Of a stretch of DNA of 43,336 nt, positions 22,745 to 25,923 are shown piece after piece (position 1 is the stretch's first letter; each line of letters begins with the position of its first letter). The position numbers and the translations under genes were made by a program. Source of the DNA: Neophaeotheca triangularis (taxonomy: Eukaryota); assembly GCA_054600435.1 (NCBI GenBank), contig BAAIJX010000065.1, forward strand, positions 62,001 through 105,336, in the 5' to 3' direction. The notes beneath the pieces were generated by a model that did no database searches, was not told where the DNA came from, and was given only the letters and a program-made list of their open reading frames with translations.

Positions 22745-22764
22745 CCTAACCTAACCTAACCTAA
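22745..22764. repeat. (CCTAA)4 pentanucleotide repeat
   Basis: Directly visible; it also reads as four tandem CTAAC branch-point motifs just before a CAG at 22767-22769. Confidence 0.85.
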
Positions 22765-23136: not shown

Positions 23137-24690
23137 ATGGCTTCTTACGAGAATGGCCACGGCTCTGTAGCCGGTTTCGTACCAAATGCGCCCATGGACC
23201 ACAACAGTGGCTACGGTACGCTTCTCGCTCTTATCTCTGCCACATTCTTGCAGAGCCCATGCTGACTCCATCTCGCTGTAGCCAGCAACGACTCTAGCAG
23301 CAGAAGTCCTCTCAACAACTTAGGCTACCTTGGCAATCTCAGTGCGGAAAAGAAGCAGACCAAAGGTAGACTAGCAGCGCCTCATCTAAAGTAATGTTGC
23401 TCTAACACTTCGCACAGATGGACAGCCCGCAAAGAGGCGAGGCCCAAAGCCAGACAGCAAGCCTGCTTTGACTAGGCGGCAAGAACTCAACAGGCAGGCC
23501 CAAAGGTTGGTGTCGTTACTCGTCGCCACCCAAAATCACATACTGACCGATGTAGAACTCACCGCGAACGCAAGGAGATGTACATCAAGGCTCTCGAGCA
23601 AGAGGTCCTTCGTCTCAAGGAGATATTCGGAAACTCAGCACGAGAGCGAGATGCAGTTGTCGAAGAGAACCGAAAGCTCAAAGAGCTTCTCGCTCAGCAC
23701 GGTATTTCTTACGACTTCGCCTCGCCTGAAATCAAGTTTGAGCGGCAAGCTGTCGGCTATGGTGTCAGCTCGAGCGGTAGTATTTCTGGCAGCTACCGCG
23801 ACAGCAGTCAATCTAGCCCGCCGCCACTCCATCCCGGTCAGAAGCACCAGCAGTACCAGGTACAGCCACACAACGGGCAACAACAACACCTCGCCCACAT
23901 TCCAACTCCATCGCACCACTCGATGGCGCAGGGCCACAACAATCAATTAGACTATGATCAAATCGGCATAGACTTTGTCCTAACGTACGACTCCCAAGGC
24001 CGCCCCATCAGGCCCCAGCCACCCTACCCATCGCCCCCACCCCAGTAATCCCGGTACGGCATCGCACCCCTTTCAAACCACCCAAACTGACGCTCATCAC
24101 TATCCCACGTAGGCTCGAACGGCCCTGCATGGACCACATGCAGTACCTGGTAGTGCGCTCGCACAACCCCGAAAACCAGCCCTTTCACCACCCAATGGAA
24201 AACCCCGACGACGACCAACACGAGCACATGAGCGGCCACGCCTTGATGGCCACTTGCCCACCGCACAGCCACATCATGCAGAAGCCCGCGGAAAAGTACC
24301 CTTACCAGATGCCCGAGCTGCCGAAACCCGATCTCAGCAAATTGCTCGAGCTGAGCAATCGACTGCCTTTCGATGCCGAAGGCGAAATCACACCCATCAT
24401 GGCTTGGACCCTCATCTACCGGGACCGAAGGCTGGGCTTGCTGGGGCCGAGGGATTTTGAGCGCATCAAGGAAGCCCTCAGTTCGCGCGTCAGGTGTTAC
24501 GGGTGAGCTTTCAACACTCTTCCTTTCCAAGTAACGTTCTAGTGCTGACCCCTCCTTACCCAGTTTCGGCGCCGTCCTCCAGGATTTTGAACTCCAAGAT
24601 GCCCTCGAGCTCGTCATGGCGGACAAGGATGCCGGGCCCCCTGCGGCGTTACTGCAGCCTATGGCTCCCGCGCAGATTGCTGCTTATTGA
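23137..24690 (+). CDS. flbB: FlbB-like bZIP transcription factor; exons 23137-23215, 23282-23365, 23418-23505, 23556-23984, 24113-24502, 24564-24690 (398 aa)
   Basis: Spliced product contains DGQPAKRRGPKPDSKPALTRRQELNRQAQRTHRERKEMYIKALEQEV (basic region plus zipper), GIDFVLTLERPC, SGHALMA, GEITPIMAW and VRCYGFGAV. I recognise these as Aspergillus FlbB-family motifs. Confidence 0.85.
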
Positions 24691-25257
24691 TTCACTCCAC
24701 CGAACACCATTCTCTGCACTGCATGATTTTCGCCGTGCGCAGCGCTTTGCGAGAATCGCACGATTGACGCCTTACCATACATTTTGAGATTATTGCTTCC
24801 ATCCAGCGGTCACTTGTACTTACTTTCTTGATGACGGATCGGTGTTGTTGTTGTAGCGAGGGCTGTGGCATTATTGTACACGCTTTATGAAAGTCCTTAC
24901 ACACTTCAGCATATACCCAGTCCTGCAAACGGTAGTCGATACCCGACTCAACGTTATGTCTCCAATATCCTTTCCCACGCTTCAGCCTTTGTGAGCCCAG
25001 GAAAAATTCCCGAAACGAGAACCGAGAACGAGAGGAAGAGGGAGGAAACAGCTTCCACGCCCAGCTCTGCTCCCAAGCTCAAACAGGCACAGGTCTTTTC
25101 TTTCATGACCGTCGAGAGCTGAAAGAGTAGACAGACAGCCAGAAACCACCAGCTCCCGTCCATCCATGTATAAATGTAGGTATACCTTAGGTAACATACA
25201 ACACAAGTAGCCAACGGCTTCGCGCTCACTGCAGCTGCAGTTACGCCTAGGTATCTA

Positions 25258-25302
25258 TACCTACCTACGCTACCTACCTAACCTCTACCTACCTACCTAC
25301 CT
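25258..25302. repeat. Imperfect (CTAC)n microsatellite
   Basis: Directly visible between the convergent flbB and KGD1 genes. Confidence 0.85.
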
Positions 25303-25923
25303 TGCCTAATTGTGCAGGTAGGTATTCATCCGACCCTCCCTCCCTCCCGCGTGGGCGAATCGAGAAGACGAGAGCCTCCGTGGTGAAAACTCGTCACGAA
25401 GTTTCCAACCCATTGGATTGGAACCCACCACCGCTGTTGGGAGATGCTTTGTAGATAGGTATGTACCGTATTTACCTATGTAGCCAGCCAGCGGACGAGT
25501 TATCAGCAGCAGTAGCAGCAGTAAAAGCGGTTTTCCATCCATGTCGATGTCATGTCATGTCCTCTTAAAGAAGAAGAAGAGAGGGGCCCTACTCACGAGG
25601 GATGCTCTTCGGATTTTATTTTGTTTTATTTACCTTTTCTTTTTGTTTTGTTTTTTAACCACGCCGTCGCAGATGAGAAAAGAAAACCCGTTAAGAAATT
25701 AAAACGTACACTCAAGACGTACACTCAAGACGATGGAAGTCCCCAAGACGCCGGGCATGTTCCGCGAACTACACAGCTAAGTAGGAACAAGATATACACG
25801 AAAAGAGGCACTCGTCCGCACACACACACACACCCATCACCTTCACCTTCACTTTCCCAAACTACACTGACACTTTTCTTCCCTCACAGCCCAGCTTTTT
25901 TTTTTTTCCTTTTTTAAATTTAC

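Follow-up and report, generated by a model that had tools for sequence, protein, structure and literature searches.

The DNA analysed here, hereafter the window, is a stretch of 43,336 nucleotides (nt) from Neophaeotheca triangularis (contig BAAIJX010000065.1, positions 62,001 to 105,336) that carries on its forward strand a six-exon orthologue of flbB, the gene of a transcription factor of the basic leucine zipper (bZIP) type. The exons occupy 23137-23215, 23282-23365, 23418-23505, 23556-23984, 24113-24502 and 24564-24690, with a start ATG at 23137 and a full-length stop TGA at 24688-24690. The introns between them measure 66, 52, 50, 128 and 61 nt, and introns 1, 2, 4 and 5 are backed by joints in RNA contigs. 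Intron 4 (23985-24112) is the longest in the gene, as had been claimed in the original prediction made from the sequence of this window. We read this intron as probably composite, with an alternative exon extension at 23985-24053 (20 tail codons with their stop, and a further 5 nt) preceding a 59-nt core intron at 24054-24112, an arrangement that would give two FlbB products. Splicing from the proximal donor at 23985 would yield full-length FlbB of 398 amino acids (aa), and splicing from a distal donor, or retention of the whole intron, would yield a form of 247 aa, here called FlbB-short. The predicted FlbB-short comprises the N-terminus, basic region, zipper and middle region, followed by a tail with Y-x-S-P-P-P-(Q/N/H) near the C-terminus.

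The assignment of the gene to flbB is indirect and passes through Zymoseptoria tritici. Exon 4 is 57% identical to Z. tritici 66896 (P0013, 380 aa), a protein listed as an FlbB orthologue by Cortese et al. 2011 (PMC3053368; for this and the other papers cited, statements refer to the parts of the text that were available). A query of exon 4 plus the tail also finds full-length Dothideomycete homologues at up to ~60% identity. The spliced model reads KRRGPKPDSKPALTRRQELNRQAQRTHRERKEMYIKALEQEVLRLKE, in which the N-terminal basic region and leucine zipper are present, and homologues of the window protein carry precomputed PF00170. Exon 4 alone gives a weak Pfam match to bZIP_1 (E = 0.089), since part of the basic region is encoded by exon 3, and exon 5 alone matches XRN1_DBM at chance level only. 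Invariant columns in exon 4 homologues include D134, G137, F140, V141, L142 and Y144 (query numbering). The cysteine motifs TCPP and VRCYGFG lie in exons 5 and 6 and recur in all full-length homologues inspected. Of the A. nidulans FlbB cysteines, Dothideomycetes conserve two, C272 and C382 (PMC3053368), and the CPP and RCYGFG cysteines of the window protein, equated with them by motif and not by alignment to A. nidulans FlbB, are likely to be their equivalents. The window protein has in common with A. nidulans FlbB and its Pezizomycotina orthologues an N-terminal bZIP, a conserved pre-LERPC motif and, in a C-terminal region like that of Yap1, the cysteines of CPP and RCYGFG.

Intron 4 interrupts the frame in phase 2 (AC|G...|G), and the G after the acceptor completes a Thr codon in the spliced form. 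When the intron is read through, its first 64 nt supply the third base of the same Thr, 20 codons (YDSQGRPIRPQPPYPSPPPQ) and a TAA. The residues of this tail are Tyr-Asp-Ser-Gln-Gly-Arg-Pro-Ile-Arg-Pro-Gln-Pro-Pro-Tyr-Pro-Ser-Pro-Pro-Pro-Gln. The predicted 247-aa product keeps the bZIP and loses all from LERPC onward, so our reading of the frame agrees with the original prediction that the first 64 nt continue the frame and that retention removes the LERPC...RCYGFG region. A PPxY motif had been proposed as well, which does not hold, since the window reads P-Q-P-P-Y-P-S and relatives read PAPY, PGPY, TPY or KAY. Chance alone would leave 20 successive codons free of stops in ~38% of cases ((61/64)^20). 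An open frame is therefore common by chance and the window alone proves nothing, so that support for the tail rests on its conservation. As a separate observation, the last tail codon and the stop (CAG TAA, within 24044-24050) contain a second possible reading, CA|GTAATC, which resembles a donor in phase 2; splicing from it to the normal acceptor would place all 20 tail residues in frame ahead of LERPC.

Conservation was examined at the codon level by scanning metagenome contigs with the patterns YIKALE[QE]E and [IV]DFVLTYD, which gave 80 loci with DNA. Intron 4 is held by 77 of these, the other 3 being spliced transcripts, and an in-frame tail of 11-25 codons is present in 77/77. There are no tail frameshifts in the 77 loci, and variation in length is always in multiples of three. 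Among unique tails, 54 of 55 contain Y-x-S-P-P-P and then a stop. Over the six codons of this motif, mean entropy is 0.19 bits at codon position 1, 0.16 bits at position 2 and 1.46 bits at position 3; the motif filter may inflate fixity at positions 1-2, although it dropped one sequence only and cannot produce free third positions. For the group of 13-codon tails (22 unique sequences, 231 pairs, NG86), the ratio of non-synonymous to synonymous rates (dN/dS) is 0.07, with 842 synonymous and 185 non-synonymous codon differences. Nucleotide identity in the same group is 0.84 over the last 39 nt of exon 4, 0.88 over the tail, and 0.36 over the 39 nt past the stop. The 20- and 24-codon groups gave dN/dS ~0.43, a value we do not use, as lineages are mixed there and the ungapped comparison pairs non-homologous positions. 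This pattern is that of a peptide which is translated and selected, and not that of an RNA element. By the same evidence, the tail codes for protein, and purifying selection acts on it in several Pezizomycotina lineages.

Protein searches place the tail across several classes, with the same codon signature of purifying selection at the 5′ end of the intron. A search for proteins near FlbB-short in length returned 563 matches, mostly open reading frames (ORFs) called on genomic contigs that run from the start of exon 4 into the intron. Among the best 120 of the 563, a tail starting with Tyr follows DFVL(T/A) in 120/120, the strict motif test is passed by 110, and a stop falls 0-3 residues past S-P-P-P in 106. 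Three families of tail can be distinguished, Y-D-S-Q-G-(R/N)-P ... (A/P)-Y-P-S-P-(P/S)-P-(Q/H/N), Y-D-R-(T/S)-P-Y-L-S-P-P-P-Q-Q, and Y-(A/G)-(D/N) ... S-K-A-Y-M-S-P-P-P-Q, and their conserved core is Y-x-S-P-P-P. In 107 of the 120 longer homologues listed, DFVLT is directly joined to LERPC, and the remainder divide into 9 with an odd insert at the junction, 3 that end in the tail and 1 that is not classifiable. The original prediction had pointed to ascomycete homologues that end in a tail like Y-x-SPPPQ, and such annotated proteins were found in Pseudocercospora eumusae (P0128), Meristemomyces (P0134), Elasticomyces (P0149), Dothideomycetes sp. NU459 (P0175, g5435t3), NU457 (P0244, g0810t2) and Sclerophora amabilis (P0249). 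A wider sample was drawn by a filter-free search of 50%-identity representatives, which added 145 new ones; 53 have a motif tail, 47 have other tails, 18 end at DFVLT, 12 have the canonical spliced form and 15 lack DFVLT.

The proximal hexamer GTACGA is the donor in 66 of the 77 related loci that hold the intron, and it is conserved because it also encodes Tyr-Asp. Against the donor consensus GTRNGT, it deviates at +6, but so, compared by eye, do three of the four other donors of the gene (GTACGC, GTAGAC and GTGAGC, the fourth being GTTGGT). The weaker donor of the original prediction therefore holds in part only. We rejected a weak donor as the explanation for the intron, GTACGA being the conserved state. 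Beyond the stop, a GTAYG donor is found in 35 of 54 unique related introns, for which shuffles give an expectation of 4.7, and it reads GTACG(C/T/G) in most loci. Of the 35, 34 sit 52-65 nt from the acceptor, notwithstanding total intron lengths of 128-278 nt. Such a donor past the stop is present in the majority of Dothideomycete-type loci, among them the window. The distal donor thus defines a core intron of 52-65 nt and makes the 5′ part of intron 4 an alternative exon extension. In the window, the 59-nt core falls within the size class of the other introns of the gene (50-66 nt), and intron 4 is long because it consists of an ordinary intron plus a 69-nt extension. Leotiomycete-like loci have introns of 71-79 nt with no second donor, and the tail stop overlaps the branch-site CTAAC, so that the tail is obtainable there by retention only. 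We also note that in seven loci with introns of this length (L041, L045, L054, L055, L069, L071, L073) the stop and the branch-site-like sequence share one stretch, for example CAG TAG CTAAC, which both closes a coding frame and acts as a splicing signal. Table 1 summarizes the features of the gene.

Table 1. Features of the flbB orthologue and of its composite fourth intron in the window.
Feature	Position	Strand	Basis
flbB orthologue, full-length form, six exons, 398 aa	23137..24690	+	model assembled from exon coordinates; RNA joints
Exon 4: end of basic region, leucine zipper, Ser/Gln-rich middle, DYDQIGIDFVLT motif	23556..23984	+	model and homologue comparison
Proximal donor GTACGA, also encoding (Thr)G-TAC-GA = Tyr-Asp	23985..23990	+	X1 joint 23984|24113
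Predicted alternative coding extension, 20 codons YDSQGRPIRPQPPYPSPPPQ	23986..24045	+	frame reading; conservation; X1 RNA contig 23956-24045
Predicted short-isoform stop TAA	24046..24048	+	gene model; stop near S-P-P-P in relatives
Distal donor-like GTACGG	24054..24059	+	sequence reading; conserved in relatives
Putative core intron, 59 nt; branch-site-like CTGAC 24087-24091; acceptor AG 24111-24112	24054..24112	+	sequence reading and related introns
Exon 5: start of Cys-containing central/C-terminal region LERPC...RCYG, not in the short isoform	24113..24502	+	gene model

Outside the gene, tandem runs flank it on both sides, with CCTAA x4 at 22745-22764 upstream and repeats of the TACC/CTACC type at ~25241-25305 downstream.

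RNA contigs from the organism of the window include a spliced form and a form that enters intron 4. Parts of the stretch occur in 13 runs, of which four metatranscriptome runs from three studies were examined. Contig joints support introns 1 and 2 in X1, X2 and X10, and intron 5 in X2 and X7. Over intron 4, X1 has a spliced contig that joins 23956-23984 to 24113-24409 at a depth of 5.75, together with a contig that runs from exon 4 into the intron (23956-24045) at a depth of 3. Unspliced cover of introns 1 and 2 was found in none of X1, X2 and X10, which for X1 argues against carry-over of DNA. X7 contains mostly relatives (95-99% identity), whose junction pieces are found spliced as well as unspliced, in similar depth, and its unspliced pieces may be DNA or precursor mRNA. 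No cover of 24046-24112 was found in X1; contigs of depth 3 may simply break, and we draw nothing from this gap about polyadenylation, the distal donor or CA|GTAATC.

Transcripts of relatives extend the picture to the distal donor. Among the 80 metagenome loci, 13 are transcript-like in that introns 2 and 3 are absent. The proximal donor is used in 3 of these (L021, L064, L080), the joint lies after the extension in 2 (L050, L033), and the whole of intron 4 is kept in 8 (L004, L013, L037, L038, L052, L054, L061, L070); as the searches were biased towards sequences with a tail, these counts establish the existence of the forms and not their frequency. Intron 5 is removed in every transcript-like contig long enough to cover the exon 5/6 junction. 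L050 differs from L052 by the loss of a 52-nt GT..AG piece, and by comparison with the genomic contig L051 all its other introns are gone. For L033, for which no genomic counterpart was found, we infer a distal-donor join. L037 is 100% identical to the genomic contig L036 with five introns out and intron 4 alone kept. A retained contig (L013) and a proximally spliced one (L021) are 99.7% identical, a closeness which indicates that both forms occur in one taxon. RNAs that include the tail therefore exist, and the distal donor is conserved and used in relatives. Separately from intron 4, two more stretches of L036, of ~158 and ~675 nt, are absent from L037 upstream of the coding exons, which suggests introns in the 5′ untranslated region of the gene of this relative.

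Constitutive splicing of intron 4 is thus not what the contigs show, as tail-including RNA is seen in both the window organism and its relatives, and the peptide at the 5′ end of the intron is conserved, so that neither of the two findings named in the original prediction as refuting it was obtained. The original prediction of a conserved short isoform made by retention stands with respect to conservation and to the presence of such RNA, and its mechanism has to be widened, as a second donor is used as well and retention is not the only route.

Several points weigh against a composite intron with two protein products. The RNA evidence consists of assembled metatranscriptome contigs of low depth, which speak for presence only, and single contigs may represent nuclear, incompletely processed RNA. 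The intron-entering contig in X1 ends at 24045, compatible with either distal-donor splicing or full retention. One or two exon junctions lie downstream of the stop in the short mRNA, which nonsense-mediated decay could therefore target. The samples are also shaped by the way in which they were gathered. Protein queries contained the tail, so the listed matches are enriched for forms that bear or retain it, and the pattern [IV]DFVLTYD likewise favours tail-bearing loci, so that a rate of retention is not readable from the matches. In the wider sample, 47 of the 100 readable tails fail the motif test, several of them plainly degenerate, and among the few representatives with a taxon name, the tails of Lecanoromycetes (Stictis, Loxospora) begin with Ser-Val and are strongly divergent. 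The conservation sample covers classes other than the Eurotiomycetes, the class of A. nidulans.

Annotated models at the same junction are inconsistent. Xylariales models P0093, P0101, P0109 and P0114, which are annotated models only, have the whole tail in frame before LERPC. Neurospora models are labelled ‘variant’ (P0307, P0394), those of N. crassa too, and that of N. intermedia (P0394) has an in-frame insert of 11 residues, YEFPPPSNPSR, at DFVLT|LERPC, without Y-x-S-P-P-P. Alternative donor use at intron 4 may therefore reach the Sordariales, with a different outcome. Among the full-length homologues, P0011, P0070, P0077, P0100 and P0108 have the junction inserts AADLR, YGKDFSGA, YADPSKS, YGKDSSST and YENPDDPSKA, which are probably guesses of gene prediction at donors inside the extension.

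There are other possible explanations for the conserved frame. The one that fares best, though we regard it as unlikely, is unproductive splicing, where the extension would only place a premature stop, transcripts would be degraded to tune FlbB dosage, and the peptide would be functionless. The stop does lie upstream of the exon 4-5 and 5-6 junctions, with ~640 nt of mRNA downstream, and it is present in all 77 intron-holding loci. However, a stop alone would not keep at least six codons under purifying selection, with dN/dS of 0.07, positions 1-2 fixed and third positions free, nor would it hold the frame open through tails of 11-25 codons. The depth of the intron-entering contig in X1 (3) is also comparable to that of the spliced contig (5.75). 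More doubtful still is a relic, in which the tail would be a once-internal constitutive exon segment that is now decaying and visible only through splicing noise. The four Xylariales models, which read DFVLT-Y...SPPPQ-LERPC in frame, and the insert of the N. intermedia ‘variant’ at the same junction are what such a history could leave behind, and CA|GTAATC at 24045 in the window could in principle yield such an insert. Yet the Xylariales models may be mere predictions, a decaying segment would be expected to show frameshifts, of which there are none among 77 loci, and the tail is kept with its nearby stop in several named lineages at low dN/dS. Least probable is a nucleotide-level element that mimics a coding frame, be it an RNA structure or a sequence that enhances or silences splicing. 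The region is indeed C-rich and adjoins two donors, and the donor hexamer overlaps tail codons 1 and 2. Such an element is nevertheless already disfavoured, as third positions are nearly free (1.46 versus 0.16-0.19 bits), synonymous differences outnumber non-synonymous ones (842 versus 185 in the 13-codon group), and length always changes in multiples of three.

A truncated bZIP isoform made by alternative splicing follows a known principle. DeltaFosB is an isoform of mammalian FosB truncated by splicing, which keeps DNA binding and dimerisation and loses a C-terminal regulatory part. FosB is an unrelated gene from another kingdom, so the likeness to FlbB-short is one of working only, and DeltaFosB is not known to have a conserved new tail motif. 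In A. fumigatus, it is the start codon that distinguishes FlbB-alpha and FlbB-beta, of 390 and 420 aa (Xiao et al. 2010, as cited in PMC3741515 and PMC3563288). According to the available parts of these sources, both flbB products are needed for normal development, which resembles a two-product gene such as the one proposed here. The A. fumigatus forms differ N-terminally and both keep the C-terminal domain, whereas the predicted short form of the window differs C-terminally and loses that domain; a difference in start codon, as in A. fumigatus, is another phenomenon. Cortese et al. 2011 compared 40 orthologues, checked intron calls and report five intron positions, and the available text of PMC3053368 discusses alternative transcripts for FlbE only, with no mention of a coding extension or short isoform of FlbB. 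A published C-terminal FlbB isoform was not found in the literature on flbB splicing and transcripts, a coverage that mostly excludes subscription journals. The form is already in genome annotations, as t2/t3 isoforms in two Dothideomycete assemblies, and no printed description was found for these models.

What FlbB-short might do can be considered by analogy with A. nidulans, where FlbB needs its central and C-terminal domains for accumulation at the tip and for induction of conidiation, FlbE binds the bZIP, and the nuclear localisation signal precedes the bZIP (bioRxiv 10.1101/467563, in the parts available). Both C382A and an allele truncated at amino acid 305 result in a fluffy phenotype (PMC3053368). 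By this analogy, FlbB-short would keep the nuclear localisation signal and the bZIP, with its capacity for dimerisation, DNA binding and FlbE binding, and would lack the central and C-terminal region that tip accumulation and conidiation require. Without the region for tip accumulation, we infer that it could be a tip-independent partner or competitor of full-length FlbB. It would be expected to reach nuclei, to bind DNA and to form homodimers or dimers with the full-length protein, outside tip signalling. The dominant-negative role or different localisation proposed in the original prediction would likewise be an extrapolation from A. nidulans domain studies. The invariant Ser-Pro after the Tyr suggests a candidate site for proline-directed phosphorylation or docking.

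A broader and decidedly tentative hypothesis is that flbB is anciently a two-product gene. The tail would be a regulatory module that predates the split of Dothideomycetes, Leotiomycetes, Sordariomycetes and Coniocybomycetes, and in Sordariales and Xylariales the junction would have turned into an in-frame insert. Nested donor choice, or retention in loci that lack the second donor, would determine how much tip-signalling full-length protein there is relative to nuclear bZIP-only protein, and with it the threshold for asexual development.

Most fungal intron retention is regarded as noise, and it is rare for retention or the use of an alternative donor to be under coding selection in more than one class. 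Among fungal transcription factors, FlbB is the reference case for a move from hyphal tip to nucleus that triggers sporulation. As far as we are aware, functional studies have dealt with a single full-length FlbB or, in A. fumigatus, with two forms that differ N-terminally. The short form would explain the inconsistent gene models at the junction, where 9 of the 120 listed annotated homologues have odd inserts. As a second product conserved across classes, it would be a built-in modulator of the FlbB pathway.

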